Assembly: GCA_013265495.1 (NCBI GenBank)
Contig: MU057640.1
Coordinates: forward strand, 310,001-374,000
From: Vicugna vicugna
Lineage: Eukaryota
DNA length: 64,000 nt
Reading direction: 5' to 3'
Every line of letters starts with the position of its first letter. The stretch's first letter is position 1. Below the pieces are notes generated by a model that saw only the letters and a program-made list of their open reading frames with translations, made no database searches and was not told the DNA's origin. The position numbers and the translations under genes were made by a program. Positions 32,701 through 58,789 of this stretch are shown here, piece by piece.

Positions 32701-35700
32701 AGGACCACTAGATGCCACACAGGGAATCCCATTTCAATCCAGCAAAATGTCCACTCTTGGGAAACTGTGTATTATGCACACCCTTCCAATCCAACCAACC
32801 ATGAGCGCAAACTGCTGGGCCAAGACATCGCTGCTGGTCCCGAAGGACTGCCGGTGCCCCGTCACCACACTGGTCACCAGGACTCGCCGAGACAAACCTG
32901 ACAGACACGGAGATGGGTGGGGAGACAGCGTTACCCGCAGTCTGCGGGGAACGACTGTGGGCAGGGGTTTAAGGTCTGTGAAATGCTTCTTCCTGGGCAC
33001 GTGGGGCGTCAGCTGTAGCTCACCTGTACTAAAGCAGTTATTTGCCTGGATGTTCAGGGACCATGCACAGGACCAGGCCCCAGGGATCCGAAAACTGCAG
33101 AGCATGCCAGGCCGGTCTCCTCCTGCTGAGGGAACAGGAGTGTAAAACTTGGCGGCTGCCTTCCAGGGATGGACATCTACCCTCCATGCTGCTGGGCCAG
33201 TGACCACCAGGTGTGGGAAGCCTCCAGAAATAGCTGCTCAGAGGGCCTACATCTTGGCTCCATCCTGGGTTTTATGGTAGCAAAATAAGGGGCACTCGGC
33301 TAAGGGTGCCTAGCTCAAAAGTGGTTACTCTGAGAGTGAATATATGGACCTTTCCTGCCTTCCCAGCAGCAGTGCTAGAAACACCAGGGAGCTAGAAATA
33401 CCAGCCACCAGGGAGGCAGTGTGGTGTCACAGATAAGAGGGTTTCAATTCCAGATCACACTCAAAGCTGTGTGAACTCAGGCAAACTTTTTTTAAAACTT
33501 TTTTTTAACTAATAAAACATATATAAAGGGTACAAATCATAGTATAAGTTTAATGAGTCATCTCTAAGTAAGTACAGGCATGTAACCACCACCCAGGTTA
33601 AGAAATAGACCCCTTGTGTCCCCTCCCAATTACTACCTCCCCACGCACTCGTCCCCTAAGAGAACCACTATCCTGACTTCTAACACCATCTCTCAGTTTT
33701 GTAAGGCAAATTCTGAACACCTTTGTTTCAGTTTCCTCACCTGCGAAATGGTGATAACACATACTCCCGCCTCATAAGCTTGCTGTATGATGAAATGCTA
33801 GGCACCCGGCTAAGTGTGCATTAAGTCACTCCATGTACCCCGAGGGGGTAGGTATTATCTTTCCTTTACAGAGGTCAGGCAATCTGTTCAAGCTGGGAAG
33901 GGGCAGAGCTGGGATTCATGCCAGCACTCTTACAGGACTGACCCTCATCCAATTGATCCTAATTCTCTGAAAGACCGAAAACTTAATATCCAGAATGCTG
34001 CCAGGCAGTTGAACTGTCTTCAGCCAGACAGAACGGAAGTATCTCTGACAACACCTGCCACACGGCAGGAGCTTAACAGATGTTCTCTGGATGATCTGCA
34101 CAGGCGGCCCAAGTAAGTATTTTGATCTCTTGTACTGGTTACACACGTTTTTAACTGTTCTGGCTACTGAAATGAACCAAAGGGAGGTGCTAAGTGAAGA
34201 TGCACATGTACAAATCCTGGGGCAGTTTAAGGAATCCTCCCAGTTGCTTCTGCAGACTGTCCCTACCCTGCGAGCTCTGACCTGGCTCACCCAGCCTGTG
34301 GTTCCCAGCCCTCCTGTCCAAGCCATCACCATGGAGCTTATGCCATTGTTGGCTGCAGCTCCTGGGAGGCAGAGGACAGAGACATTCCTCAGAGCACCTC
34401 CTTATCCAAAGGAAAAGGACCCCCTGTACCTGGATGACTGCTGACAAACAGTGATGCTGGAAGCAGGGTGGCGCAGCCTGGAGTCTCTGCAATTCCCATG
34501 AGGCACAGCCTGGAAAAGCTGTTAAGGACAGTCAAGTACAAGGTCTCCTCTGGGAGGAGAATAGGCATTAGTAGCTTTCAAAAATTCTTAATAATACCCA
34601 TCATTCATATTTAACACGTTTCATATTTTTTTAAAGGAAAAAAGGTCACAGTTAAAAGCCTCCCTTTAACTTTCCCTACCCAGAAAGAATCACTATTCTA
34701 AAACTGGTCTGAGGTCTAGTCCACAATACTTCCCCGATATGATATTTGTCCATGAGCAATATAATGAACTACTTGGCTTTAAAATATACATAAATCACAG
34801 CACACAGAATCTCCTATAACTGTTCAGCCTGCATTGCCTCCTAGTCATCTGTGTTTGTCTGCAGCTCCAGCTCATCTGTCATCACCACAGAGCATCCTCG
34901 TGTATGAATACACCCCAATTTATTTATCCCGTCTCCTGCTGATGGGCACTGAGGTCGTTTTGGCCCTTTTTTCTCCTCCGCTCCGTGGCTGGAATGAGCC
35001 TCTCTTCCTATCCTGTCTCCCACTCCCATGTGTGGGAGCCTTCTCTAAAGCAGTTTCTTACATCCATGGTAAGAATTTCACTTTACACTACAATGTGCTA
35101 TATACACACAGGCGTTTTAAAGTTTCATAAAATATTTAATGTTACTAAATACGAAACTGATATTTTCTAGTCTACTTCGTTAAAACAAAAAGCTGCTCAA
35201 TAAACTGATTTCATGGTCCTCTGATAGGTTATGACTCAAGTTGGGAAGCATGGCTCCAGTGTCTGTACCTGGAATGGAACTGTGGGGCGGGAGGGTACAT
35301 TCACTTGCAACCTAAAGTGGCTGTCTCATTTACTCCCACCAGCAGCTTCCCCCATTCTCCACATTTGCCAAATTTGGCACTAACAGACTTTAAAAATCTG
35401 TGCTCATCTGAATGGGCATAAAATATCTCATTTTAATTTGCATTTCCCTGACTACCTCTGATTACAGTAATTTGGGTTTCCCTTTCTTTGAACTGCCTCT
35501 TTATTCCCTTTGTCTGTTTTTCTATTGGACTGTCTCTCTTCTGACTGATTTGGTTCCTTTCCCTTCAGAGCCAAACTTCTCCCAACAGAAACCTATGTTT
35601 ATCCCCACTTCCTTGCCTTTCTTTGACTCAACCCACTGAAATCCAGGTCTGACCCTCGCCTGGAACATTCTTCCCAAAGTCTCCAATGAGCTCCTAATTT

Positions 35701-38700
35701 CTAAATCTGATGAATACTTTTCAGTCCTGCCCTGCGCCGAGCAGCAGTTTCTAACTATACACTCCTCTTGGTGTTTCAGCCTTGGACCTTCTCCTATCAC
35801 CAAGATTCCCTGGCCTTGATTCTAAGCCTCCTGGATTCATGCCTCTCCTCCCCCGCTGCCCATCAGTTCTCCCCCTCTCCACTGCCCTCTTACTCTCACA
35901 GCGGCCTTCTGTCCGAGGTCTCACCCTCACCAGCCCATCACCCACACTGCTATGTAAGAAATGGCTCCTCGACCACAGTCCTTCAGGGGCACCCCACAGC
36001 CTGAAGATCTGGCCTTGCAAGGCCCTACCTAGCCAGAGACATCACGGATACCAAACCACTTGCTGCTGCAAAGATGCCAAGCTCTCTCCTCACTCTTCCT
36101 TCTGACTGGAGCTCTGTCCTCTCCTTCCCATGTGGGAACCACCTCCAGAAAGGCTGCCCCCATCTCTGCACCCTATTGTATTCAACTGCCCCACAGACAT
36201 CACTGCATAGACTGACCACCCGTTCAGCTGCCCAGGTCCAGCACCTTGCACGGGGACTGAATATGCTCAACAGACATTGGTGGAACGAACACTCATGCAC
36301 ACCTCATTGAAAAATCTACATCTCTGCCACATAATGAGGCACCAGTCTTGACAGTCCGAATGTGTGACGTGGGCTTATCATGTTGCACTGGGTAGTCAGC
36401 TCCATGTTAAGGATGTCCAGGACAGTGGCTGCTGAAATTATAAACGAGAACGCCATATCGGGCAGCTCAATTCTTTCTGAAATAAATCTCTTTTCCTTCT
36501 GGGTTTTAAGGGCAAAAGGGAGAAAGTCCTTACCCAGGTACACTTTTAGTGACTATGGCTGAAAGCCAGGTTACACTCAAACCCTGTACGGTTCTTACAG
36601 GGCCAGTATCATAGATTTAATCCTTTCATAGGCCACAGGTCAATGCATAACCTCGTAAGTGCAGGAAAAATGCAGTCTAACTTCCCACCACTCTTTGGGG
36701 AAAAGCACAGAGCACAGGTCTGAATCAGGTTCCGTTTTGTGAAGGGAGAAACTTCCACGACCTTCAGCAGAAGCAGCAGGTGCACAAAAGCCTGAAGATT
36801 ACCTGAAATGACCACCAGGGGGCAAGCCGCTGATCAAACTACAAGAGACCACACTCTCTAAACCCAATTACAGGCATACCTTGTTTTACTGCGCTTTGCA
36901 GACAGTGTGTGCTTTGTTTTGAACAAACAGAAGGTGTGTGGTGACCAGGCGTCAGGGCAAGTCCACTGGCACTATTTTCCCAATGGCATTTGTTCATTTT
37001 GTGTCTGTGTCACATTTTGGCAATTCTCACAGTATTTCAAACTTTTTCATTGTTGTTGTATTTGTTATTGGTGGTCTGTGATCAGTGATCTTTGATTCAG
37101 AAAGATTATGACTTGTTAAAGGCTCAGATGATGAGCATCTATCACACTCTTAAAAGACTACAGTATAGTGTAAACATCACTTTTATACAGGCTGGGAAAC
37201 CAAAAAACTTGTATGACTTGTTTTATTGCGGTATTCGCTTTACTGCAGTGGTCTGGAACCGAATCCACAATATCTCTGAGGTACGCCTGTGTGTGGATTT
37301 TTGTCCTCTCTTTAGCCCACCGAGAAAAGTGTGGAGACAGTGCCGTATCATTTGAAGATCAGAAATGAGAGCAGGTTGTTTTCTCTCTTTTAAGGCCTGA
37401 TCTCTTCTGCCCTCTGGTAAGATCATCATAATAACACATGGTCCCATCACATCCCAGAACCCGACGAAATGAAAGCCACATAAAACTTTCAATTTACAGA
37501 ACACACAAGTTCTCTGTTTGTCTTACATAAAATTTATAATCAGATCTCTAATGTGCTTTAGGCTTTAAAACCTTTCGAAATAGAGTGCTGTGGAACAAAC
37601 TGTTAAAAAAACCCTGAAAAAACCAGGTTCCAATTCAGGCATCATTTGTTGAGGAACCATGACGTGGCCACGCACTGTGCTAAGTGAATTCATGGATGTT
37701 AACTAGTTAACCTCATGACAACTCGTGAAGTTGGTGTTCGGTATAACAAGTGGTCACATAGTTCTAAGAACTCATTTATTACGGAAATGAACTGTAAGAC
37801 TCAGTAATATGTGGCTTTGGGTCAAACAACTTCACTCCATGAAGGACATGAGGGACAGCTGTCCTGTGCATCAGCAGGAGCCCCCAGGGATTGCAAGGAA
37901 GGACCCAGCTCCCCTGACACTACACAGTATATACTATGTTCCTACAAATCCCTGATGGCTCTCTGGGAAGGGAAGGCACAGACTAGAATGAAGAGTGCTC
38001 TAAAGAAGCCATCTCCGGCTGGCGACCTAGGCCCAGAGCCCACAGCCCCAGTCCAATGTCAAAGGAACCTCCTCCTCTGGTGCCTGCCCTCAGCCTCCCT
38101 CGCCCCAGGACCACTGCAGCTCTGGGCTCCTCCTTGGCCTCAGGAGGATTTGGGGTTCCTTTCCAAGGCTTTACTGTTCCCTTCTGCTTTGTTCCTCTGC
38201 TAAAGCACTGACTCAGGTTTCAGAAGTGTCTGGCACATAGTGACATCATCCTAGGACCTCAACTACTTCTCTGTGCTTCATGGGAAGCCTTATTTTCTAC
38301 CCAGGTGCACTGCTCTTTCCTACAGGGTGAGGTGTATGTGCAGAATGGCCCAGACTTCTAGAGACTACGATACCATCTCACAAACCCCACAGATGCCTAG
38401 GTCCATATTAGGGCATGGCCTACCCACCAAACCCCTTTACCTGCCAAAAGATACAGAATGTGGGAATCCAGATGATTCAGTGAGGCCCAGCACACAGCAT
38501 TCACCTGGTGAGGAAGCACATAGCAAGATGCAAAAATTGGTTTGACTGTCAACTCATGGAGAGAAACAGACAAATACTTTCTTGTGGAATACACGTATGT
38601 GACTTCTTTCTTCTTTTCTCACTCCTTGAAAGGGGGCTGGAACAAGCATCCTGAGAACGGGGAAGCTCCCTACCCCACCATATAGAGCCTAGAGAGGGAA

Positions 38701-44700: not shown

Positions 44701-46127
44701 CTACATTTCTAGTCCAAGGACTGCTGCTCCATTCTTTCCACATGGAGCCCAGAAAGTGGCTGTCCACTGTTTCCACGCAACTCTGTCAAGCTGAGTCAAG
44801 ACTCTCTTCTTGCACAGATCACATTTTGCTACACTTTGTACTCTTGTGGGAAGGCCTGGAGCCCAAAAAGTATCCATGCTTCTTCTTACAAAACATACAA
44901 ATATTGGGTGCTGTCCTGCTCTTTCTAAATATGGGTCAAGTTTGGGACTCTGGTTCAGAGCAGTATTTTCTGCTGCATCTAATGAGGCCGACCAGGTACA
45001 GAGGGCCAATTCAGAACCAAGCAGCCTGACAGTGGCTTTATATACATTATTGTGAACCTCACAAAAGTACTGTACAGGAAGAGGGACTCCAAGTCACTAA
45101 GAAGCTTGCAGTTTCACACAGGAAAGAGCAGAGTGTCAAACCCAGACTTCCTAACTCCACGGTCCTTGTTCCTTCATATTTTGATGCCTTCAATCATCAC
45201 TGTTTAGGTTCATCCGTTCTAGAGAAACATCCTGGCGTTTGACATATTCTGCTCCTATAACTGGAATCTGTCCATTTTAAAAGGAGATCTGGAGTGTGGA
45301 AGAGTTTTGAAATTGGCATACGGGTCTCCTTTGGCGAGGAGGGGGCTGTGCAAAGACTTCCTATGGCCAGAGGTCATGTCAGCAGCCTTGAACTGTGAAG
45401 AGGTGTTTTCTCTTGGGGAGGGGAAGGGAGGGGTGTCTTTTGTTCTGAGACTAGACTGTATTTAATTCATGCAGAGAAATAAGTAGAGTATGGAAAATAT
45501 TTATTATGGGGACTTCAATTAAGTATACACTAAGTTTTATTTTTTTAAGCTAGGTGGAAGGTACAGTGTTGGTGTTCACTGTATTATTTATAACTTTCTG
45601 TGTTTACTAAATACAGTATTATTTATATTATCATATATACTATATATAGCCTTACTTAGGATTTAGGCTGAATTAATGAAGTTAGGTTGCCAGAAAGCTA
45701 TTTTCATAAGCTGAAAAAAAAAAGAAGATAGAGCAAGTCTACAAAATGGAGAAGCAGCTCTTCAGTTGTATCAGATAATGTTTACTTCTAAGCCTGTGGC
45801 CAAGGCTCTGGTCAGAAGTCATGGTCACTCTGAAAAGCAAGACAAGTGTGGTCAGCTCCTCACTACCCCAGCATGGCAGACAGGCCGATCTGCAGCAGAG
45901 ACACCCCCCTGGGAGCCTGTCAGAAGTGCAGACTCTGGCTGGGCCCCTCAGACCCTGCATTTTGCCGAGACCCCCAGTGAGTCATGTGTGTGTGAAGGTG
46001 CTGTCAACGCTAAAAAGACACTGGACAGCAGCACTTGCCTCTCGTTAGAACCATGCTGTCTGAACCAGGGATTCTGCCGGTGGCTTCTTCTCCCATGTCT
46101 TCTATTCTGCCAGCTGCTTTTATGCAT
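29598..46127 (-). CDS. DCAF4: DCAF4/WDR21A (DDB1- and CUL4-associated factor 4), complete CDS: complement(join(29598..29791,31275..31389,31753..31926,32800..32897,33024..33122,34430..34509,38455..38504,38980..39123,41031..41133,42317..42399,43208..43365,43776..43876,46039..46127))
   Basis: Exons sum to 1488 nt = 495 aa plus [17 protein letters not shown]-terminal motif, H-box, WD40 repeats with WDLR, C-terminus YCFSYS. Confidence 0.96.
31275..31389 (-). CDS. DCAF4: DCAF4 exon 13 (IKLWDLR...GIVVA), WDxR motif
   Basis: ccacag acceptor, G|gtacct donor, 115 nt. Confidence 0.95.
31753..31926 (-). CDS. DCAF4: DCAF4 exon 12 ([11 protein letters not shown]...SDMAGT)
   Basis: ccacag acceptor, ACG|gtaggg donor, 174 nt. 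Confidence 0.95.
32800..32897 (-). CDS. DCAF4: DCAF4 exon 11 (GLSRRVLV...QQFALM)
   Basis: tgtcag acceptor, ATG|gttggt donor, 98 nt. Confidence 0.94.
33024..33122 (-). CDS. DCAF4: DCAF4 exon 10 ([11 protein letters not shown]...CFST); alternative start 33125
   Basis: Tandem cagcaggaggag acceptor; G|gtgagc donor. Confidence 0.93.
34430..34509 (-). CDS. DCAF4: DCAF4 exon 9 ([26 protein letters not shown])
   Basis: TCCTTAAC branch site then ttttccag acceptor; G|gtacag donor. Confidence 0.94.
36809..36827 (+). promoter_or_regulatory. Candidate CTCF site
   Basis: TGACCACCAGGGGGCAAGC versus consensus TGGCCACCAGGGGGCGCTA. Confidence 0.5.
36871..37289. mobile_element. Tigger1-derived internally deleted DNA transposon
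   Basis: TIRs caggcatacct and aggtacgcctg; TA on the left, TG on the right. Confidence 0.85.
38455..38504 (-). CDS. DCAF4: DCAF4 exon 8 ([17 protein letters not shown]), U12-type donor
   Basis: 50 nt; donor CT|gtatctttt. Confidence 0.93.
38980..39123 (-). CDS. DCAF4: DCAF4 exon 7 (ADTNSDRLF...YFTNRK)
   Basis: ttctag acceptor, AAG|gtaccc donor, 144 nt. Confidence 0.95.
40742..40801. repeat. 60-bp element, copy 1 (direct repeat with 42546-42605)
   Basis: 54/60 identical, ungapped. Confidence 0.9.
41031..41133 (-). CDS. DCAF4: DCAF4 exon 6 (LAHELRVSC...RFNLIL)
   Basis: ctgcag acceptor, CTG|gtgagt donor, 103 nt. Confidence 0.95.
42317..42399 (-). CDS. DCAF4: DCAF4 exon 5, contains the DDB1-binding H-box ([13 protein letters not shown])
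   Basis: tttag acceptor, CG|gtaaga donor, 83 nt. Confidence 0.93.
42546..42605. repeat. 60-bp element, copy 2
   Basis: 54/60 identical to 40742-40801. Confidence 0.9.
43208..43365 (-). CDS. DCAF4: DCAF4 exon 4 ([15 protein letters not shown]...QGK)
   Basis: aag acceptor, AAG|gtgggc donor, 158 nt. Confidence 0.95.
43776..43876 (-). CDS. DCAF4: DCAF4 exon 3 (...[18 protein letters not shown])
   Basis: caacag acceptor, G|gtaagg donor, 101 nt. Confidence 0.92.
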
Positions 46128-46135
46128 TCCAGCTC
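46039..46135 (-). CDS. DCAF4: DCAF4 exon 2 with start ATG at 46127 ([22 protein letters not shown]...)
   Basis: Long pyrimidine tract plus cag acceptor; donor is AG|gcaagt (GC-type). Confidence 0.9.
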
Positions 46136-49100
46136 CTGAAAGAGAAAAAAAGAAAATTACTTACAAATGCATGTATGCACACTTTTCTCTACTGTTTGCT
46201 TCCCTCATGCTCAGAAGTAGGCAAAAGGATTGGCCCAACTTGGGTTATCATCAAAGTCGTCACCAAGCCTCACCTATAACAGGACCGCCACCAGGCAGAC
46301 ACATGGATAGAATCCAACGTGCCTGTAGCCACTTTTCTGGCTGAAGTCCTCTCACCTCACAGCTGATGCCTGGCCCACCAACCTGCCAACCTCCATTCCC
46401 TGGGTCACTGTGGAGGAGCTGACAGACTCTTACAGTTTACTTCACAATGACAGTTTGAGCCTGGCATGAGAACCCTCCTAGGCTAGACTTCTTTTCAGAT
46501 AACACCAGAGCATATAATAATTTTTCTTTCAATTCACACACATCCCTATTCACAGAAAATAGTTAACAGTGAACACTTTCTCCAACTCAGTTTCAATACT
46601 GACCAAGGCAAACTGAACAAATTAAGCAGGGCCTGCCTATTACTTCTCAATGTGCTTTTCACTTAAATCAGCAAATCATCACACGTTTTAACATTGGAAA
46701 TCATATTAGGAATTCTTAAAAAGACTGAACTGTAGTACATGAACCAGTTGCTGGGAGTTTCAAGCTTTCCTAACGCCTGCTTATCTTTTCCACCGGAGAC
46801 ATTGTGATATCTTACTGAATACACTTTAAAAACATATTCAAATGCCATAACAAAATTAGAAACAAATTTTTAAGGCTGAGTGCAACCAAACAATAGATTG
46901 GAAAATCTATTTGCCTTTATTTCTCAACTTCTACTTTTGAGTGGGGAATGTCTGTTAGCATCAAACAGAGCATTTGAAGTCTGGATCTGCATTCCAGAAT
47001 TCTGTATTTATCCAACAACTTTCGTGTCAACTTATGATTGTGAGTTGGGGCTAATTCAATACAAAGGAAGAGTAATTTAGTGAGTATAGTACTTAACCAA
47101 ACATAGCATGAATTCTGTAATGTAGTACTCGATCTGCTTGCTTCAGAGTCAGTCTGCCTCCCCCACTGGGCCACTCCACAACCTGGATTAATTTAACCAA
47201 CCACTCTCTAGTCCTGTGCCAGAATTAGTAAGCACTACTAGAGCGAGCTATATAGCCATGCTGACTTGGAGTCGTCATAAATGCCTCACTTTCATTCTCT
47301 GCTGGGACATTATAAATCAACCTGATCTTATTTACTCCTAGTCTGATTCACTCCTGACAGTCCAGGGTTTTATCACTCTCCTAAAATCCCTTCCTACTTC
47401 CTGCCAGTCACCCTTAATAGATAGCATAGCTCCCCACCTCACAGAGAAGAGATATGTTACCAGCAGGAATAGCCCAATTTCTTTCCCATCCACTCCACAA
47501 ACATCTGCCTTTACTACTTTTTATCATCTTCTCTCTTGTTTTGGAGAAACAGGTGTCCCTGTACCATTTCCAGGCAAACCCATCTCACCTGGCTGTTTAT
47601 CTCATTTTCTTCTCAAACTCTGCAGACATCTGTTCCCATATATGTTTAATCAATCTTCCCCTCTCCTTATCTCAGCTTACATAAACATGCTCAGGTTTTT
47701 CATTTGTATGTGCTCTACCTCTAACCCAAAAGGAACAGAAATGTTCGGAGAGCACGGTCTACAGGTATACATTCCACTTCTTTGTTTCCAATCATTCTTC
47801 AACCCACTGCAGTTAGACCTCCTCTATCCTCATCTTTCTGCTAAAATGCTCTTGCTGAGGTATTAACTAATGATGGCCTCCTTGCCAAAGTTAGCAGTCT
47901 CTTTTTAGCCCTTATTCCTGCAACGTGTGACACCATGAAGCATCACTCTTCCTTTAGCTTCTGTAATCTTCCTCTTGGTTCTCTTCTTACCTGTCAAGTT
48001 CATCCTTTTCTAGTTTCTTTTGGGTCACCCACTCCATGTGTGTTTTCCACTGTTCTGTTCCAGATCCTCCTGTTTTCATACTTAATACCACCTTACTTGT
48101 CACACAGCTTCATTACTAATCCTAGCATCCCTCTTGAGCATCAAGTTCTAATTAAAAGGCTGCCTTCTGTCTACTGCCATAGACCTAGCAGCCTCAACAT
48201 GTTTAAAAGTGAGTTCATGATCTCTCCCTTGTGCTCAGTTTGCTTCTACCTATCTGTAATTCCCTTCTCTGAAATTCTCCCACTGCCCCACTCCCATCCA
48301 AAAGTATAATAATTGTATTCATTTTCCTCAGCAATCCCTTTAATGGCTCATGGACACCACAGGCAAAGGTTTCCCTTTGGATTAATTATCTTATGCCTCA
48401 GCCAAAGAATAAAGTTGCATTTATTAACTAGTTAAGTTACAAACTAAAAGGCACTGTGTATAGGAAGGGAAATACGTATGCTCAGTGTTAAGAAAACTGG
48501 TAAGAGAAATAAGCCATGTTGACATAAGATTATTATTACCAACTTTATTCAGAGATAAAAATTTCTTTAGATTATACATTCTGTACATGACTCCAATTTG
48601 CTTAGTTATGAAATAATACATGAATATACTGAAGAACACAGGTAACGGTGAATCAAAGACTTTAGGTCATCCATCAGGAGGCAGGGCCACTGGTCCACCT
48701 GCATCACTATTCTCAACAGTTGGGCACTGCACGATCAGAAAGACACAGTAAATACTGAAATAAATGGTGAGTGATTTTGGCCAAAGACAATGTTTTTAAA
48801 CAATCAACTCACACAGCACAGGCTCAGACACTGCAACAGAATAAGGGAGGCTGACACTAACTATTTTAATAAGAAAGACCAAGTCAAAGCCATTTAAAAA
48901 AGCCACAATAAATAGAAGTTGACCAAATACAGAAAGGGTTAAGAGTAGGATGAAACGGTATCTTTTTATACTTTCAAGAAGCCTATTTGAGGGGTGGGGA
49001 GAGTCTTCCCCAAATGCAAACATAGTTCATTCTCAATGTGAACTTTAATGGATTATGCTTACACTTATCACCCTGTACTGAACTTCTGTTTGTACTCCTA

Positions 49101-50165
49101 CTTTGTATTAGACATGATGTGAATGTTTTAAGGCAAAGATCCTGCCCTTGTTCTTTTTTCTATTCCTAGCACCCAGGACCTAGTTGGTTCTTAGTAACTA
49201 TTCACTGAGCCAAAACAAACCAAACAAACAACTCCTTGAAATCCCAGGTAGCTTCCTTCTGCTCTGGGCATTTTCGTTTGTTATTCAACATATATTTACA
49301 AAGTGCCCACTCTATGTCAGGCACTGGGGAGCAGGCAGAGATAAAAAAACTGTGGTTCCCGTTCTCAAGGCACTCGTTGTTTAGCAGGGCACATGAATGC
49401 ATGAACAAATTCCTGTAGTGCATCATAAGGATGAAGACCCAGATCTCTGCAGGTGCAGTGGGAGAGAAAGGAGTGACTGGTCTGAGTGAAAGGGACAGAG
49501 GGGAGACAAGAGTTTTAACCACAGCCTGAAGAACGAGTGTCAGGCAAGGTAGTGCGCTGAGGGGCCTGCAAGCAGTTTGGTATGGCTAGAACCTTAAGTA
49601 AAGAGGGCTAAGGGATGAGGCTAGAGAAGAAGGCAGGACCAGATGCCAAGGTCTCTGGGTGCTGGGTGATTAGCATGATTAGACCTGCGTTTTAGAAAGG
49701 GCACTTTAAAGGCAGCAGTGGAGGGAGTAAGTTGGAAGTTAAAGACTGCTGGGGCAACTCAGGTTAGAGGAACCCACTAACACAGAAGTGATACTTGGGA
49801 AACAGAACCCTGAATTTAGAAAGATTTAGAAGGTGAATTTCACAGGAGAGGTGGAGAGAGGGGAGCTGATAACCGATACGTGAATAATTGGTAGTGTCCT
49901 GACCTGGGAGAGCAAGAATAAATGAGGAAAAGCAGTTTGGGAAAAGATGAGAGTAAGTCTCATTTTGAATAAATCAATCTCAAGATGTTTGTAAATAAGG
50001 GTCTGGGAACCAAGAGGGAAAATGAGGCTAAAGATAGAGTCATCAGTACGTGGTGACAGACTGAGACAAATGTGGCTCCAAAACCAAATATATAGCGGGG
50101 ATTAAAATTCAAAATTAGAGACAATTTTATTGGACAGTAATATGAAATCAGTACAGTTTCTCGAT

Positions 50166-50371
50166 CAGTGTTTCTTAACCAAGGACAATTTCACCCACCA
50201 GGGAACACTTGGCAATGTCTGGGGACACTTTTGTTTGTCACAACCTGGGGGTGGGTTGCTGCTAGCATCTAGTGGGTGGAAGCCAGAGATGCTGCTAACC
50301 ATCCTACAACACGGACGGCCCCTTGCAACAAACTATCAAGCCCCAAATAGTCCTGAGGTTAAGAAATCCTG
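50166..50371. mobile_element. MER20 (hAT-Charlie)
   Basis: cagtgtttcttaacc..ggcaatgtctgg..gcatctagtgggt..gaggttaagaaatcctg; degenerate 8-bp flanks ttctcgat and ttctagtt. Confidence 0.85.
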
Positions 50372-50714
50372 TTCTAGTTAGGAAGTGCTCAACAATTTGC
50401 TGGGTGAAATGCTGAATCCTAGTGCCTTCGTAGATACTCTGCCAGGCACAGACATTAAAACAGATGTGGAAGGCTGAGCTTGGCTTTGCCTCTTAGAGAG
50501 TCTTTCCAGTACTTAAAGGAGTAAAGAAGAATAATTTCTAAGAGATCACTATTCTAGAAAGACAATGTTAATCTCAAACAAATAAACATGATTTAACTTT
50601 TTGAAAAATGAGCAATACTTATCAAGTAACTTATACTTGCCTTTTTCTGAGAAGTGATTCTAAGAAAATAATACAAAAGATTATAAAAATTATATGTAAG
50701 ATATTTACTGCAAT

Positions 50715-51450
50715 TTTTCAATTCACTTTATGAAGCTAGTATTACTGTTGCCAAAACCAGACAAAGGTAATCACAAGACTAGAAAATTATAGATCTACTT
50801 TATGAACACAGACACACAAATCCTCAACCAAATGCTAGCAGACCAAATCCAGAAGCATATAAACAGGATTATACACCATGACCAAGTAGGATTTACCCCA
50901 GGAATATAAATGTACGATTCAACATACGAAAAGCAATCAACACAAAACGTATTAATAGAGTATATGAGGAAAAAACCCCTTTACACAAGTACCTCAATAG
51001 ATACAGAAAAAGCATTGGACAAAATCCAGTACCTTTCCTGATAGAAACTAGGCACAGAAGGTAACTTCGTCAACTTGATAAAGGGCATCTACAAAAACCC
51101 ACAGCTAACATTATATTTAATGGTGAAAGACTGCAAGCTTTCCTCCTAAGACCAAGAACAAGACAAGGATATCTGTTCTCACCACTTCAACACTGTACTG
51201 GAGGAGGGGGAGGATAGAGCTCAGTGCCAGTGACTGCTCAGCATGCAGGAGGTCCTGGGTTCAATCCCTAGAACCTCCATTAAAAAAATAAGCCAAATCC
51301 ACCCCCCCCCAAAAACCCCACTGTACTGGAAGTTCTAGCTAGAGGCAGCTAGGTAAGAAAAAGCAATAAATGGCACCCAAACAGGAAAAGAAGTAAATTT
51401 TTTTCTATTTGCAGATGACATGATGTTACATACAGGAAATCCTACTAGAC

Positions 51451-51485
<35 letters not shown>

Positions 51486-53108
51486 AAAATTTCAGTTTAC
51501 AAGAGTAATATATAAAAATCAGTAGTATTTCTATATACTAGCAAAGAACAATCTGAAAATGAAATTAAATACATTTACAACAGCATCAAACAGAATAAAG
51601 TACTAGGAATAAACTTAACAAATAAGTGCATAACTTGTACACTGAAAACTATAAGACACTGTTGAAAGAGATTAAAGAGGATCTAAGTAAATGGGAAGAC
51701 ATCCATATCATGGACTGGAAGAAATAAGATGGTCTCCAAACTGGTATAGTTTTAATGCAATCACTATCAAAACGACAAACTGATTTTGAAATTCATAGGG
51801 AAATGGCAAGGGAAGCAGAATAGTTAAAACAGTCTTGAATAAAAAGCGAAGTTGGAGGACTCACATTTCCCAATTTCAATGCTGCAGTAATCAAGACAAT
51901 GTGGTACTGGCAAAAGGAGAAAAATATAGATCAATGGAGTAGAATAGAGGGTCCAGGTTAATAAACCCACGTATCTATATGCCAACTGATTTTGACAAAG
52001 GTGCCAAAACCTTTCAGTGGAGGAAAGAAGAATCTTTTCAACTGCTGGGACAACTGGATATTCACCTGCAAAAGAATGAATCTGGATCCCTACTTCACAT
52101 CACATATAAAAATTAACTCAAATGGATCTAAGTTCTAAGACTATTAAACTTTTAGAAGAAAAAGGTGTAAATCACCACAAACTTGGATTAAGCAATGGTT
52201 TCTTAAATATGATACCCAAAGCACAAGGAAAAAATAGATTAACTAACTAGACTTCAAAATTAAAAACTTTTGTGAAAAGAATACTTTCAAGGAAGTGAAG
52301 ACAATTCACAGAATGGAATAAAATATTCCTAAATCCTGTATTTGATAAGGATCTAGTATCCAGAATATATAAACAATTCAACAAGAAAAATAACTCAATT
52401 AAAAAATAAGGAAAAAATTTGAAGACATTTCTTCAGAAATATACAAATCGCTATAGAACATGAAAAGATGCTTAATATTGTTAGTCATTAGGTAGATGCA
52501 AATCAAAACCACAATGAGATACCACTACTTATCTACCAGGATGGCTATAAAACAGATAACAAGTACTGGTGAGGATGCAGAGAAATTTGAACTCTCATAC
52601 ACTGCTGGTGGGAATGTAAAATGCTGCAGCCACTTCGGAAAACAGCTTGGCAGCTCCTTACAAGGTTCACTATAGAGTTACCGTATGACCTAGCAAAACC
52701 CAGCAGAAACGAAAACATATGACCATACAAAAATTTGGACAGTATCGTTCACAGCAGTATTATTCATAATTGCCCCAAAGTGTAAACAATCCAAATCTCC
52801 ATCAACCAATGAACTGATAAAACAAAATGTGGCACATTCATACAACAGAATATTATTCAGCCATAAAAAGAATGTAGTACTGACAACATACTACAATGTG
52901 GATGAACCTTGAAAACACTATACTAAGTGAAAGAAGTGGGACACAAAAGGCCACATACTGTATGATTTAACGTATATGAAATCTCCAGAACAGGCAAACC
53001 TAGAGAGAGTGTGAGAGAAGTGGTTTCTAAGGGATAGAGGAAGAAAAGAAGGTAGATACAAAAAAAAAAAGGAGGTAGAGAGTGGGAAGTGACTAATTGG
53101 TACAAAGG
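50715..53108 (+). mobile_element. Old L1 (L1MA/MB-like) ORF2 3' part plus 3' UTR, left portion
   Basis: Typical L1 motifs (gaaaaagcatt..gacaaaatccag, caaatcaaaaccacaatgagataccac, gctggtgggaatgtaaaat); decayed; interrupted by a SINE. Confidence 0.85.
51203..51318 (+). mobile_element. tRNA-derived SINE nested in L1
   Basis: TSD cactgtactgga at 51191-51202 and 51319-51330; gctcagtg..gggttcaatcc A and B boxes. Confidence 0.85.
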
Positions 53109-53109
53109 T

Positions 53110-55032
53110 CCACTTCTTCTTTTTTTTTTTTAAGCTTTTTTGAAGTCTTTTTTTCTATTTTGAATATGCTTTTTTCCGTTATCCCAAATGAGTTGATAAA
53201 GGCTCTGATTAAACTGTTTTATGTTTTCAGGAATAAGAGTGACTTTTATTATGTAGTTAGTAGCTTGGAAAATTTTTATACAATTTTAAATGATTTATGA
53301 TGTTCCATGTGTTCTTGTTTACATTTCCCTAAGCATCATTCTACCAAATTCCTAGTTTCCAAAAGCTGTAGTACCATACATAATATTTTAGTATGATAGT
53401 AGTTTTGTTTTAAAACTAGAATCAGGTTGATGTGACTTTAAAATTTATGCTTTGCCCATTTGTAAAACACTGAGATATTCACGTCACATTTCCTTTATTG
53501 TTTGACTATACACTTGTTGAAAGGTAAATTTACAGATCAAATGATGAAGCTTCATGTTTCAGTAAAAAAACTTTTGTCTTTTTACTTAAAGATTCATGGA
53601 ATAGAATTTATACTTAAGCAGAATGACTACACAGAATCTTTTTCTGGAGTCAACTTAAAAGCAAAGTGGAACTGGTAGATCTTTTGGTTTTTGTTATTGA
53701 CTTACTATATAGGACTCCCAACCAGGTATAGAGCATTAATATGAAATACTGAGAAATCCATAATCTTTAAAAAAAGGTGGGGGACGAAGTATACAAAAAG
53801 ATCACATTACCACTAAGAGGCTGAAATGACTGGATTTGTAGTATTTTTTAAAACCTTCATTTTGGGTCAGCATAAATATCCTTTAATTTTTTTTTTCCCT
53901 ATTTTCAGAAGCATTCCATTGAGGTTTAACATAGCAAGCCAATATAAAGTTCTACAATTCAGCAATCCTGAATTTTGAGTCATATTAAGATGAAAATGGA
54001 AGTCAGAACTTAGGAAAATTTTCATCTGTTACGTCTAATTCATCTTCTGCTTGTTGATCCTCTCTTAGAAAGGTGGACACCTTTCCTGTTCCAGATAGAC
54101 ACTTAGCTGACAGAAAGCTCTGAAAAGGCAACTGTGAATTTGCTCTTACAGTATCTAAATGAGATGGATAATTTGGTAGACACCTAGAGCTTCTGAAAAC
54201 CTAGCTATCTGCTCATCAATCTTTTGTATATGTTGGTAGGAGGCAATGTATACCTCTAAAGCTTTGCTGTGGAAAAGCATTTCAATAGTGCTAAATTCTG
54301 AAAACATAATGTTTGTATCACTTGCTTTCTGCTTTTCAAAACTGCCAAGTTTCCTCCAGATGAGAGCTGTTTGCATGGCATCCACCGTGGCTCTCTGTAA
54401 CTGGCTTCGCCCTGAAATGCGCGTCCAGCAGATAGATGGGCGTGCTGATTTGCCCTTTTTACTTAAGAGAGCTGCTTAGCTTCTCCATTCCTTGTTACTG
54501 ATGTTGCCGTGGGGTTATCTTGTTTCGTTTTTACAACGGTTGCTTTGGCTGCACGTCTCTCAACTGCGGCGTGTCCGTTACCCTGAAGTTCTGCAAACTC
54601 CTGAGCGATGTTTCCAGCCTGGCTTCAAATGTGGGGTCTCTGTGACGCCTACTCAAGGCTCTCACTCACCGGAAGGTCGGCCTTGCCTCCCAGTCTGGTA
54701 GTTTTCCGCGCTCCAGAATGCTTCCGTTCGAGCGGCCCCCATTCCGGTGGCGCTTCCTGCCCCGCCCCCCAGCCGCCATTCCGGGCCACACAGGCCCGAC
54801 CCCGCGGCCTCAGGCTGGTGGCGTGGCAGGCGGCCTCCCTCGGCCTCGGCCCGAGGTGGGCCCGGAACTCGGCGGGCGGTCTGGGCTCCAGCCCACGGCC
54901 GAAATTCAACGTCGGGGCCAGGCTCCACTCACCCCACGTCGCAGCCGGCCCTCAACGTCCCACAGAGCACATGGCCGGGGCCCTCAGCGGGAGCCCAACT
55001 CCACTGCTCAGAGCTGCCTGGGCCGCGCTGGG
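53110..55032 (-). pseudogene. CIBAR1: Processed pseudogene of CIBAR1/FAM92A (BAR-domain ciliary protein); intronless, with 3' UTR and poly(A) remnant, disrupted by stops and frameshifts
   Basis: Minus-strand pieces RKTTRLGGKADLPVSE, FSEFSTIEMLFHSKALEVYIASYQHIQKIDE and DQQAEDELDVTDENF match recalled FAM92A ([59 protein letters not shown]); no introns; T-run at 53120-53131; TAG at 54651-54649. Confidence 0.9.
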
Positions 55033-55180
55033 GCCACAGGGTTTCTTTTCGCAGAGATGAAAATGTTCTGGAATAAGACAGCGATGACGGTCGCACGACC
55101 CTGCCAACATACTACAAAACCCGCCCAACCGTACCCCGTAAAACGGCGAATTTTATGGGTTGTGAATTGTATTTTACTAC
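55033..55180 (+). mobile_element. Right-hand continuation of the same L1 3' end, separated by the retrocopy
   Basis: acagggtttcttt..gatgaaaatgttctggaa..aattttatgg..tgtgaatt continues where the 53108 piece stops; aligns with the reverse complement of 1711-1820. Confidence 0.8.
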
Positions 55181-55689
55181 AGCAGTGCTATATTTATAAG
55201 TGAGAAGCATCCTAAGTATCCAGCGACAGGTGAGTTAGGGTTGCAGACACCAGCGTCTGGAAAACGCAAACGCCACCGGTTCGTAAAGCTGAACACGAAA
55301 TGGCCTCTACGGGGAGCCCGCCGTGCCCACCCCAGCCGGCACTGTAACTGCCTCACAAACGGAAGCCGCGACCGTGCCCAGGACAGAGTGGTGGAAAAGG
55401 AGTTCCATCCCTGCTGGTCTGGCCTCAGGACTTATGACCCTCAGGACACCACCTCAACTACAATTCCCACTGCCCTTGAAAGCTAGAGTTGGAGGCTTTG
55501 GAATGTTGCCCGTTTCGTCCAGGAAGTTGTCGCCTCAGTCTTCTTTCCTACTGGCTGTCTGAGTCACAGGACAGCTCTGCAGACCACCTCACGCCCGTCC
55601 AGGGAAAGGGGGTGTCACGGTTTCCGAGGTCAACTGGGGAGACGACGGGGCCTGCTAGACATCGCGAGTGCCAGCATGGAAGGGTGGCT

Positions 55690-55920
55690 TTGTCGCTAAT
55701 GTCACAATTCGGAAAGCTTGGATTCAAGCCGCGATTCCAGCGCTTACTAGTTGGTGAGTTACCTCGGGCAAGTGACCACTTCACCGGGGCTCCTTAAGCG
55801 TCCGACAAAGGTACTACCGCCTAACTCCCAGGGCTGGTGTGCGGAGAGCGAGGTTAATGCCCGTAAAGCAGTCAACAGCGCCCAGCACTCAGTAAGCGCT
55901 CAGTACGCGTTACCTGTTAG
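55690..55920 (+). mobile_element. MIR inside the CpG island
   Basis: ttggattcaag..cttactag..tgagttacctcgggcaagt..gtaaagca..cagcactcagtaagcgctca. Confidence 0.65.
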
Positions 55921-56338
55921 GCTGACCTGTGTGAAAAAAGTCAACCACAACCTGAACTTTCAGGTAAACCGCCCCCGAGGGCCCGTAGTCCAGCCACTGG
56001 CAGCTGTTGGGTGGCATCTTCACATCAGGGTTTAGAAAAACGTTCCTTCGGGTCAGACACGGAGCGGCGACACTCGCGGTCCCCCTCCCCCGTCTCCACG
56101 GCTGCAGAGCCGACAGGAAGAGCCGGCTCCGCGCGCTCGCGGATCCCACACAGCCGGAGCTCGCCGGCCCAGCCCCCAACCCACGCCACGGTCAGGCCGG
56201 CGATCCACGTGCTCGACTCCTCCCCGCCCCCTTCTCAGGCCTTCCTCCCAATCCCCTCTCCGGTCCCGAGCTTTGCGGGGCGCGCAGCAGCCGCCTCCAG
56301 ACCGACCCCAACTGTCACTCCTGATAGCGCAGACTTAC

Positions 56339-56490
56339 TCGATCAAAAGGGTCCTTTCCGGCTTTCCCTCGGGCCCAGGGTCAGCAGGAGGAGCTGCTAG
56401 GCGTGGAAAGACCCGGAAAGACCGAGCCGTAGCGTCCGCCAGTTAGTTGCGTCCGTTCTTGTGTTACCTCAGCGGATAGGGCCATGGCGG
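56339..56490 (-). other. DCAF4: Putative DCAF4 non-coding exon 1 (5' end uncertain)
   Basis: GA|gtaagt donor at 56339/56338 just downstream of CCAAT and GC boxes in the CpG island. Confidence 0.65.
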
Positions 56491-56730
56491 CCGCCCCTTC
56501 CTTCTCATTGGATGCAGCTTCTGACAGTCTACGCCAATAGGGTGGATCTTAGGTAGGGGGCGGGGACCGGGGGCTTAGCTCCGCCCAGCTTGGCAAAAAG
56601 GCCGGGAGCCGGCGGCTGGCGAGACTGGGCTCGCCGCGTTTGGGGCGTGGCCATGCGTTTGGGGCGTGGCCACGCGCATTTTGGGGCTGGGCGGGGGCGG
56701 GCCGGGGCGGGGCTGGGCGGGGCCGGAGGC
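56490..56730 (-). promoter_or_regulatory. DCAF4 core promoter: CCAAT boxes (about 56506-56511 and 56533-56538), multiple SP/KLF GC boxes, G-run cluster
   Basis: attgg and ccaat; ggggcgggg and ggggcgtggc motifs repeated; no TATA box seen. Confidence 0.75.
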
Positions 56731-58789
56731 TGAGTTCGGACCTCAGGAGAGCCGAGGTGGCGTGTTCCTAAACCGTGGATACGACACCCGGCACCGGGTA
56801 TTTTCTCTGTCTGTGGCTGGTCGATACAGCCTGGGAAGTTCCTTTCGCCGCTCGGGGCCACTATCTTTAAAACTGAGACTTGGGAAAGAGGAAATACTGT
56901 GTTGTGGGAAGGGCGAAGGAGGCTCTGAGATGAGTGAGAGAAAAAGGAACAGGTAGTGAACTGGTGGTAATGAGTTTCGCTGTGACCTCAGGTAGCTGAG
57001 GCTGCTGACCCTTGTTCTGCATGGCTCCAAGGTGCAAAGGAACGTGCCCTGAACGTCAATCAAGAGGCCTTGGTTCTAGGTCTATTTCTGTTTTCTTCTT
57101 GCTGTGTGACCTAGGGCGAGCCTCTTCCCTTTCTGTGCCTTGATTTCTTTTACTGAAACACGGAAGTTGTTCTAACGTTCTGATGGTCTCACCAGCTCAG
57201 TTTGTTCATACAACTAACATTTCCAGAATGATCTCTGTGCTGTGCCTTTTTCAGGTGTCAGCTGACAGCCATCAGATCTGAAAGGAAAACGGAAGCTTGT
57301 GATGGGCACTTGACTAGACTGACATTTTTGTGAGGCGAGCTGAGTTGTAATAGGCCAGGCTTGATTGCTGCAGGGAGCAGGCCTGGCACACCATGTGCCC
57401 TGTTAACCCAGGCCCCTGTGAGTGGCTAGACCCATTAGAAAACAGATTGTGGGGTTTATCAGTTGTACCCATTTTAAAAGCATTTTAGTCAATAATAAGG
57501 AAGGTGGGATTTTGGCTCTCAAGAATTTTATATTAAAAACTATGGAGTGGCAAGAGGTGATGAGGATAATGAGTGAAGTGAATATAGTTGGAATAAAGGA
57601 CAGCTTCAGGAAGCTTGAGTGGCCTGGAAGAGAAAGTGGAGAGAGAAATTCTAAGCTGGACAAACAAGCTGACTGGAAGCCTGATCAAGGAATAGTGAGG
57701 CATTCGTTTTGGCTGGATAAGAGGGGAGTCTTAGAAGCAAAACTGGCAGGGTAGGATGGGTCAAATGGCAAAGGTAAAGACCTGCAGGCAGAGGGAGCCT
57801 CCGAAGGCTTGAGAGCTGGGGAGTGGCAAGACAAGAGCTTTGGGGAAGTCACCTGGGCAGCACTGTAGATGAAACTGGAGAGGAAAGATTGTGGAAGTCA
57901 GCTGGAAGCCTCCTTAGAACCTTCTTGCACCTACAGTCCTTTTGAAAGATAGGACTGAACCAGAGTGGCGGAGGCTGGGATGGAAGGAATGGGTGGAAGT
58001 GAGACATTTTAGAGGAGGGAGAATTCTGTGAGAGGAGTCAAAAGGGATTCCAACCTGCAGAGCCAGGGTCACTGGAGGAAGTTTGAAGGAGTTGGCTTGG
58101 GGTTTGCTGAGTAAATGAATGAATGGCAAACAGCTGGCCATTGGGCTCTCTTGAAAGTTCACTGAGGGAACCTGGGTATAGGCACAAGATGTGCCTTGGA
58201 GACCTGCAGCAGGCACATTGAGAAAAAAGATTAAAAAACATTTGCAAATCACAAAGGAAGCCTGGCCTTGGGCAAGTCTTTTGGCATCTGTGAACCTAAG
58301 GTTCCTCACAGGTGAAATGAGGATAATGATACCTGCTGAAGGGCCTTGTGCTAAGTAAATGCGATGACTGTAAAGCACCTCGCTGCTAGGTCTGCACTCC
58401 CACGGACTGAGCACCCTTTTTTATGAGGATGGCTTGGTATATAAATGGTGCATATTACTATCAAAGGTATAAATAATTCCTTTTTAAAATTTCCTCTCCA
58501 GAATTTGAAGCCAAGGCAAATAAGTTTTTATTTGAAATGACATCTAAAATGATAGACATTAAATTTGACTACATTAAAAAATACTTTTATAGTCCTTGTC
58601 ATGTGTCACATATTTTCTAAGCCCTTTCCATATATTTGTTTTTTTAATTACAACAACCTGTGAGGCAGGTACTGTCAATGTCAACACTTTACTGATGAAT
58701 TGAGTCCCAGACAAGTTAAGTTGCTTGAGCTGGTGAGTGGCACAGCCAAGACTCAACCCAGATAGTTTCCAGAGTTTGTGCTCTCAAGG

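Follow-up and report, generated by a model that had tools for sequence, protein, structure and literature searches.

A decayed copy of another gene, CIBAR1 (FAM92A), lies in intron 1 of DCAF4 in Vicugna vicugna, and on the minus strand, from which DCAF4 is read, its 5' part carries an ATG, an open stretch and a splice donor in frame with the DCAF4 start. As the initial annotation of this locus had proposed that the dead retrocopy was exapted as a second promoter and N-terminal extension of DCAF4, we asked whether it serves as a coding first exon. The analysis covered a stretch of 64,000 nt (contig MU057640.1, positions 310,001 to 374,000), here called the window, and all positions are those of the window unless a contig is named. 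If the exon were used and translated, the locus would provide a clean, datable case of a dead retrocopy that equipped its host gene, which encodes a ubiquitin-ligase substrate receptor, with a promoter, a first exon and new coding sequence outside the parental frame.

53790 to 54799, minus strand: decayed processed retrocopy of CIBAR1/FAM92A without introns; its 3' limit is set where BLAST homology ends, its 5' limit lies somewhere from 54799 to about 55031.

The Pfam FAM92 profile (PF06730) matched the minus-strand ORF at 54155-54475 with E 1.8e-17 and, weakly, that at 54463-54624 (E 0.051). Comparison of 53850-54950 with the genome it came from returned the stretch itself and, at 74-86% identity, five segments of exon size that belong to a single gene on contig C6466; sensitive BLAST gave 73-86% identity to these parent exons. 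The corresponding blocks (54709-54569, 54400-54312, 54308-54213, 54202-54078 and 54066-53790) are colinear with the parent exons and lack the introns, the gaps between the last four measuring 3-11 nt, while the parent exons are spread over about 22 kb (C6466:2820680-2843155), where the Pfam profile recovers the gene exon by exon. Five colinear intronless blocks and the FAM92 matches thus identify a processed CIBAR1 retrocopy. It is oriented in sense relative to DCAF4, and its CIBAR1 frame is split across several ORFs in different frames. The stretch is a decayed processed pseudogene of CIBAR1 in DCAF4 intron 1, and the Pfam match, the five exon blocks and the broken frame bear out this part of the initial annotation. 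A second multi-exon FAM92 gene, presumably CIBAR2, was found on contig C8969 (4634050-4640127); it was ruled out as the source of the retrocopy, since the nucleotide matches go to C6466 only.

Both ends of the copy are less sharply defined. At the 3' side the homology stops near 53790, where no clear A-tract was seen by eye. At the 5' side a match to the parental 5'UTR reaches 54799 in the gap-tolerant global alignment only, apparently including about 70 nt of 5'UTR and the exon 1/exon 2 junction. Local alignment of 54800-55150 to parent exon 1 and its 5'UTR scored 58, no better than shuffled sequence (mean 56.7), and a second local alignment of the 5' part scored 16.5, a value that 52 of 300 shuffles attained as well. 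Homology beyond about 54735 on the upstream side therefore lacks statistical support. The gap-tolerant alignment also placed deletions of 32 and 27 nt in the exon-2 part of the retrocopy, the former between two CAAAC repeats, and set the parental ATG opposite a gap in a weak part of the alignment.

The elements at issue, and the DCAF4 exon to which they would be joined, are as follows (a slash marks an exon boundary in all sequences given).

54670 to 54742, minus strand: candidate coding segment, with its ATG at 54742-54740 and 73 open nt to G54670.
54664 to 54669, minus strand: donor hexamer GTGAGT (CCG/GTGAGT), with the GT at 54669-54668; eight of nine consensus positions.
54759 to 54768, minus strand: GC box GGGGCGGGGC, retrocopy-derived, at the position of the parent 5'UTR just before its start codon, in a part of the alignment without statistical support.
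46039 to 46135, minus strand: DCAF4 exon 2, starting after tttcag, with the annotated ATG at 46127-46125 and a GC-type donor (GAG/GCAAGT).

The minus-strand text around the candidate reads ...ggggggcggggcaggaagcgccaccggaATGggggccgct...gaccttccg/gtgagtgag, and the start-codon context at 54742 (ccggaATGg) is strong. ETS-like motifs are found as CCGGAA at 54782-54777 and 54747-54742 and as GGAAG at 54757-54753 and near 54725, again on the minus strand. GC box, ETS-like motifs, ATG, open stretch and donor all lie where the initial annotation had placed them, 1.7 kb into DCAF4 intron 1. ATG and donor are contained in the minus-strand ORF 54662-54928, whose text includes MGAARTEAFWSAENYQTGRQGRPSG. 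A splice from 54670 to 46135 would read ...TCC G/GA GCT GGA ATG, which is the DCAF4 frame, and would leave no stop between ATG 54742 and the DCAF4 ATG; the claimed in-frame join was thus confirmed by frame bookkeeping and by the ORF text. The predicted extension comprises 27 residues (peptide stretches MGAARTEAFWSAENYQTGR and GAARTEAFWSAENYQTGR) and is read in a non-CIBAR1 frame, as had been proposed. When the 88-aa ORF was compared with longer proteins (cluster representatives), none of 1139 candidates reached E <= 10, and a metagenome scan with a 30-nt piece of the candidate exon gave 0 matches. At the other end of exon 2, the annotated protein is obtained with no junction other than the GC donor (46033-46041, minus strand).

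Both the donor and the ATG differ from the parental sequence. The parental exon 2 (C6466:2820593-2820827) reads ...GCAGACCTCCTGGTGAATGAAATC..., compared with ...GCCGACCTTCCGGTGAGTGAGAGC... in the window. At the splice site the parent has CTG/GTGAAT (codons CTG GTG AAT for L-V-N) and the retrocopy CCG/GTGAGT, which corresponds to T>C at -2 and A>G at +5, and the retrocopy donor is therefore derived. The parental ctggtgaatg, which the initial annotation had given in describing the donor as newly strengthened, is indeed what CIBAR1 exon 2 of this genome reads. In the gap-tolerant alignment the retrocopy ATG falls on the equivalent of the parental exon 1/exon 2 junction (GGAAAACC/GGG), so the ATG is derived as well. 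Its descent from the parental out-of-frame ATG in CAA GAT GCT was considered and dropped for the 32-nt deletion between the CAAAC repeats.

The surroundings of these elements have the composition of a CpG island, which runs from the canonical promoter over an interspersed repeat into the retrocopy, of which it covers the 5' third.

54250 to 57000, no strand: CpG island of about 2.7 kb, GC 0.50-0.67, CpG observed/expected 0.56-0.90.

The 5' block of the retrocopy (54569-54709) shows 15 W>S and 5 S>W changes and has 7 CpGs where the parent has 5, whereas three downstream coding blocks (within 53790-54400) have 1, 0 and 0 CpGs against 4, 2 and 2. The W>S bias and the CpGs kept or gained show that the 5' third evolves like island DNA, and the edge of the island thus falls inside the pseudogene, near 54400-54570.

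As an ATG and a donor in matching frames may also meet by chance, the frequency of such pairs matters. The 46136-57200 interval contains 663 GT sites on the minus strand, 22 of which match at least seven of the nine positions of MAG/GTRAGT; for 8 of these 22 good donors there is in addition an ATG whose frame stays open and, once joined, would be that of the DCAF4 start. Eight positions are matched at five sites including the candidate, which is alone in this among the six good donors of the CpG island. Genuine DCAF4 donors within the window reach 6-8 of 9 (seven junctions resolved for eight adjacent exon pairs); at 8 of 9 the candidate is level with the best of them and competent by consensus. 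The combination of ATG and donor nevertheless lies within the chance range, and in-frame pairs of this kind arise easily in GC-rich promoter-proximal DNA.

Other first exons for DCAF4 are documented upstream of the retrocopy.

56339 to 56508, minus strand: ancestral (canonical) DCAF4 exon 1 region, identified by tblastn homology, with donor CGA/GTAAGT at 56339.
55927 to 56017, minus strand: coding part of the 5' exon of NCBI alpaca DCAF4 isoform X7 (MPPNSC...FFHT(G)), with donor CAG/GTCAGC at 55927; 31 of 31 residues identical.

The N-termini of DCAF4 from elephant (P0068, E 2.8e-12), armadillo (P0066, 2.7e-9), sheep (P0147, 3e-7) and manatee (P0061, 0.042) matched 56508-56339 by tblastn, and the sheep protein crosses onto exon 2 (...SDR/ELKCIK) precisely at donor 56339. 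The stretch just upstream (56500-56730) contains GC boxes, a CCAAT box and a 19-bp tandem repeat. To judge from this homology and these motifs, DCAF4 ancestrally has its promoter at 56500-56730 and its first exon at 56339-56508. The elephant, armadillo and sheep models read through this exon to give their proteins a longer N-terminus; two stop codons interrupt the same frame in the window, where the exon can be 5'UTR only. The second first exon was found when the exon 2 query was extended to 41 aa, which led to nine proteins (cluster representatives) with alpaca X7 (XP_072819469.1, P0001) as the best match at 100% identity. X7 maps exon by exon to the window at 100% identity and has a 33-residue extension, MPPNSC...FFHTGAG. 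A 5' exon within the CpG island supplies this extension (MPPNSCQWLDYGPSGAVYLKVQVVVDFFHT), which begins at an in-frame upstream ATG. The extension had no match among 122 DCAF4-related protein N-termini compared, and it may be as incidental as the candidate.

The five other camelid DCAF4 proteins compared (Camelus dromedarius/bactrianus, three Camelus ferus isoforms and alpaca X6/X4) all start with MHKSSW, that is, at the exon-2 ATG. The comparison drew on 15 of the 66 members of the cluster that holds the camelid isoforms, and one of alpaca X1-X3 and X5, which are outside it, could carry the candidate extension; among the camelid NCBI models compared, none joins 54670 to 46135. A motif search for DCAF4 exon 3 gave nothing useful. 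Annotation and homology thus back first exons with donors at 56339 and 55927, and lean against the second promoter with N-terminal extension of the initial annotation. Co-option of the retrocopy as second promoter and first coding exon finds no support here and is disfavoured by several independent lines.

We infer instead that the retrocopy is probably an ordinary intronic processed pseudogene whose donor at 54670 is not used or only marginally used. In this reading, a CIBAR1 pseudogene inserted in sense into DCAF4 intron 1, some 1.5 kb past the canonical exon 1, and its 5' end has been absorbed into the CpG island of the DCAF4 promoter, with CpGs kept or gained and AT-to-GC biased change. 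ATG 54742, the 73 open nt and the GTGAGT donor are then by-products of decay, namely of the two deletions, small indels and the A>G at +5. DCAF4 transcripts would normally begin at exon 1 (donor 56339) or take the 55927 exon, and the retrocopy would leave with intron 1. Where the 54670 donor was used at all, a minor transcript would be expected in which the uORF of a further ATG at 54779 dominates translation, without a stable extended protein. Three observations count against non-use: the donor, with eight of nine positions matched, lies in a CpG island alongside ETS-like motifs and a GC box; two substitutions have brought it closer to the consensus; and a gene predictor picked this donor in Camelus ferus (P0086, discussed below).

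Alternatively, a minority of DCAF4 transcripts might use the 54670 donor and so include the stretch as a non-coding 5' exon. The geometry of this exon depends on two further features.

55067, minus strand: candidate acceptor ctgtcttattccag/A, with 15 of 20 pyrimidines, the only good one upstream of the ORF.
54777 to 54779, minus strand: upstream ATG in strong context (cccggaATGg), which, spliced at 54670, opens a 41-codon uORF ending in exon 2 past the DCAF4 ATG.

The exon could be an alternative first exon, with its start at the downstream border of the CpG island, or, together with the acceptor at 55067, an internal exon of 398 nt that sits between exons 1 and 2. Three ATGs lie between 55100 and 54670 on the minus strand (54972, 54779 and 54742), the first of which opens a uORF of 6 codons. 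The effect of such an exon would be regulatory, with the two uORFs that begin at 54972 and 54779 lowering DCAF4 translation and no new protein being made. The strong donor, the one good acceptor and the CpG-island chromatin likely to extend over the stretch argue for it, as does the established occurrence of retrocopies as alternative exons or in chimeric transcripts with host genes, described in passages of Kubiak and Makalowska (2017; PMC5408686). The present case resembles the intronic exonised retrocopies of that source in that a parent with several exons gave rise to a decayed copy without introns, inserted in sense in a host intron and equipped with a usable donor. It differs in being proposed, from sequence alone, as a first coding exon in a non-parental frame, for which the passages concerned contain no example. 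As no annotated camelid protein among those compared needs the exon, we regard its use in a non-coding form as possible, yet unlikely.

Translation of the exon is more demanding. If the 5' end of the retrocopy acted as a second promoter, with ATG 54742 adding 27 residues in an alpaca/llama-specific manner, transcription would have to start within 54778-54743. This follows from the strong ATG at 54779, which lies 37 nt upstream of 54742 in another frame: the extension needs either a start in this window of 36 nt or leaky scanning past the 54779 uORF. The in-frame ATG in strong context, the open stretch and the derived strong donor speak for translation, as do the GC box and ETS-like motifs 15-40 nt upstream, and alpaca X7 is an instance of the annotation pipeline admitting an extension through the same phase of exon 2. 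X7 shares with the candidate the acceptor at 46135, the phase, the approximate length (33 against 27 added residues) and the lack of similarity to any other protein. It differs in using an exon of its own upstream of the retrocopy (56017-55927) and in being a database model, which the candidate is not among the NCBI models compared.

The only model compared that does use the 54670 donor is a Camelus ferus protein annotated as 'WD repeat domain 21A isoform 1-like' (EPY81244.1, P0086). Its first exon is the orthologue of 54779-54670 and begins at the equivalent of ATG 54779. It shares first-exon region and donor with the candidate, but it differs in starting at this ATG and in reading two other frames. 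The donor is joined to 45392 and not to 46135, so that the true exon 2 is skipped, and the record is probably mis-annotated; we read it as an ab initio-type model and no proof of transcription. Its exons at 45318-45392, 35930-36028 and 34265-34360 (minus strand) are missing from the other camelid DCAF4 proteins compared. The protein places the retrocopy in Camelus and, most likely, the donor as well. Residues 1-18 correspond to one frame of the window (54779-54726; 17 of 18 identical) and residues 24-37 to another (54711-54670; 14 of 14 identical), while the five residues between them need 15 nt, compared with 14 in the window. The first exon thus has 37 codons (111 nt) against 110 nt, indicating one extra camel base between 54726 and 54711, as far as one protein from a draft assembly can tell. 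From the camel equivalent of ATG 54742, whose presence the Asn-Gly residues would allow (AAT GGG), the frame would then reach the donor in another phase and stop at a TAA in exon 2. With this phase shift an in-frame extension can be at most specific to the alpaca side. Of the conservation that carriers of the insertion might show, the donor therefore most likely stands in Camelus ferus and the 54742 frame, judging from this protein, does not.

Together with the five camelid proteins that start at the exon-2 ATG and the 54779 uORF upstream, the apparent lack of the frame in Camelus ferus argues against an N-terminal extension. The peptide is absent from the database representatives, it is short and similar to nothing, its frame rests on deletions of the pseudogene type, and such a frame is obtained by chance for 8 of 22 good donors. 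We therefore consider a translated extension very unlikely. A new first exon of the alpaca/llama lineage, built from the donor changes at +5 and -2, a 1-nt difference from camel that framed the AUG and a CpG-rich 5' end firing a start, is likewise very unlikely. It would imply a lineage-specific DCAF4 with 27 new N-terminal residues, next to the region at which this CRL4 substrate receptor could make contact with substrates or DDB1.

Also very unlikely is a unit independent of DCAF4, in which an unspliced or locally spliced non-coding RNA starts from the edge of the CpG island: the retrocopy seems to hold part of the CpG-rich 5'UTR of its parent (match to 54799), a gene with its first exon inside a CpG island of GC 0.7-0.8, but homology upstream of about 54735 is without statistical support and no intact ORF is present. 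That retrocopies can draw on their own 5' sequence for transcription is established, with PABP3 as an example in the passages concerned (PMC5408686). The CIBAR1 copy resembles this type in having a parent with its first exon in a GC-rich CpG island and in apparently retaining about 70 nt of 5'UTR; it differs in lying inside a host CpG island of about 2.7 kb and in its weak 5'UTR homology. As the retrocopy sits in an existing host island, its CpG richness need not be inherited. In the literature searched, no paper linked DCAF4 with a retrocopy, and the combination of DCAF4 with an alternative promoter gave nothing relevant.

The island contains further inserted DNA. Between the retrocopy and the upstream exons, at about 55035-55190 on the minus strand, lies a dispersed repeat that had 147 candidates in a first look at the genome, of which 39 other copies were scored (70-83% identical). 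It is a putative L1 3' end and looks CpG-enriched relative to such ends. DNA inserted beside a promoter, be it a retrocopy or an interspersed repeat, may thus acquire CpG-island composition. The 19-bp tandem repeat upstream of exon 1 (2.2 copies, CGCGTTTGGGGCGTGGCCA) extends over 56635-56676 and adjoins a run of GC boxes at 56690-56730.
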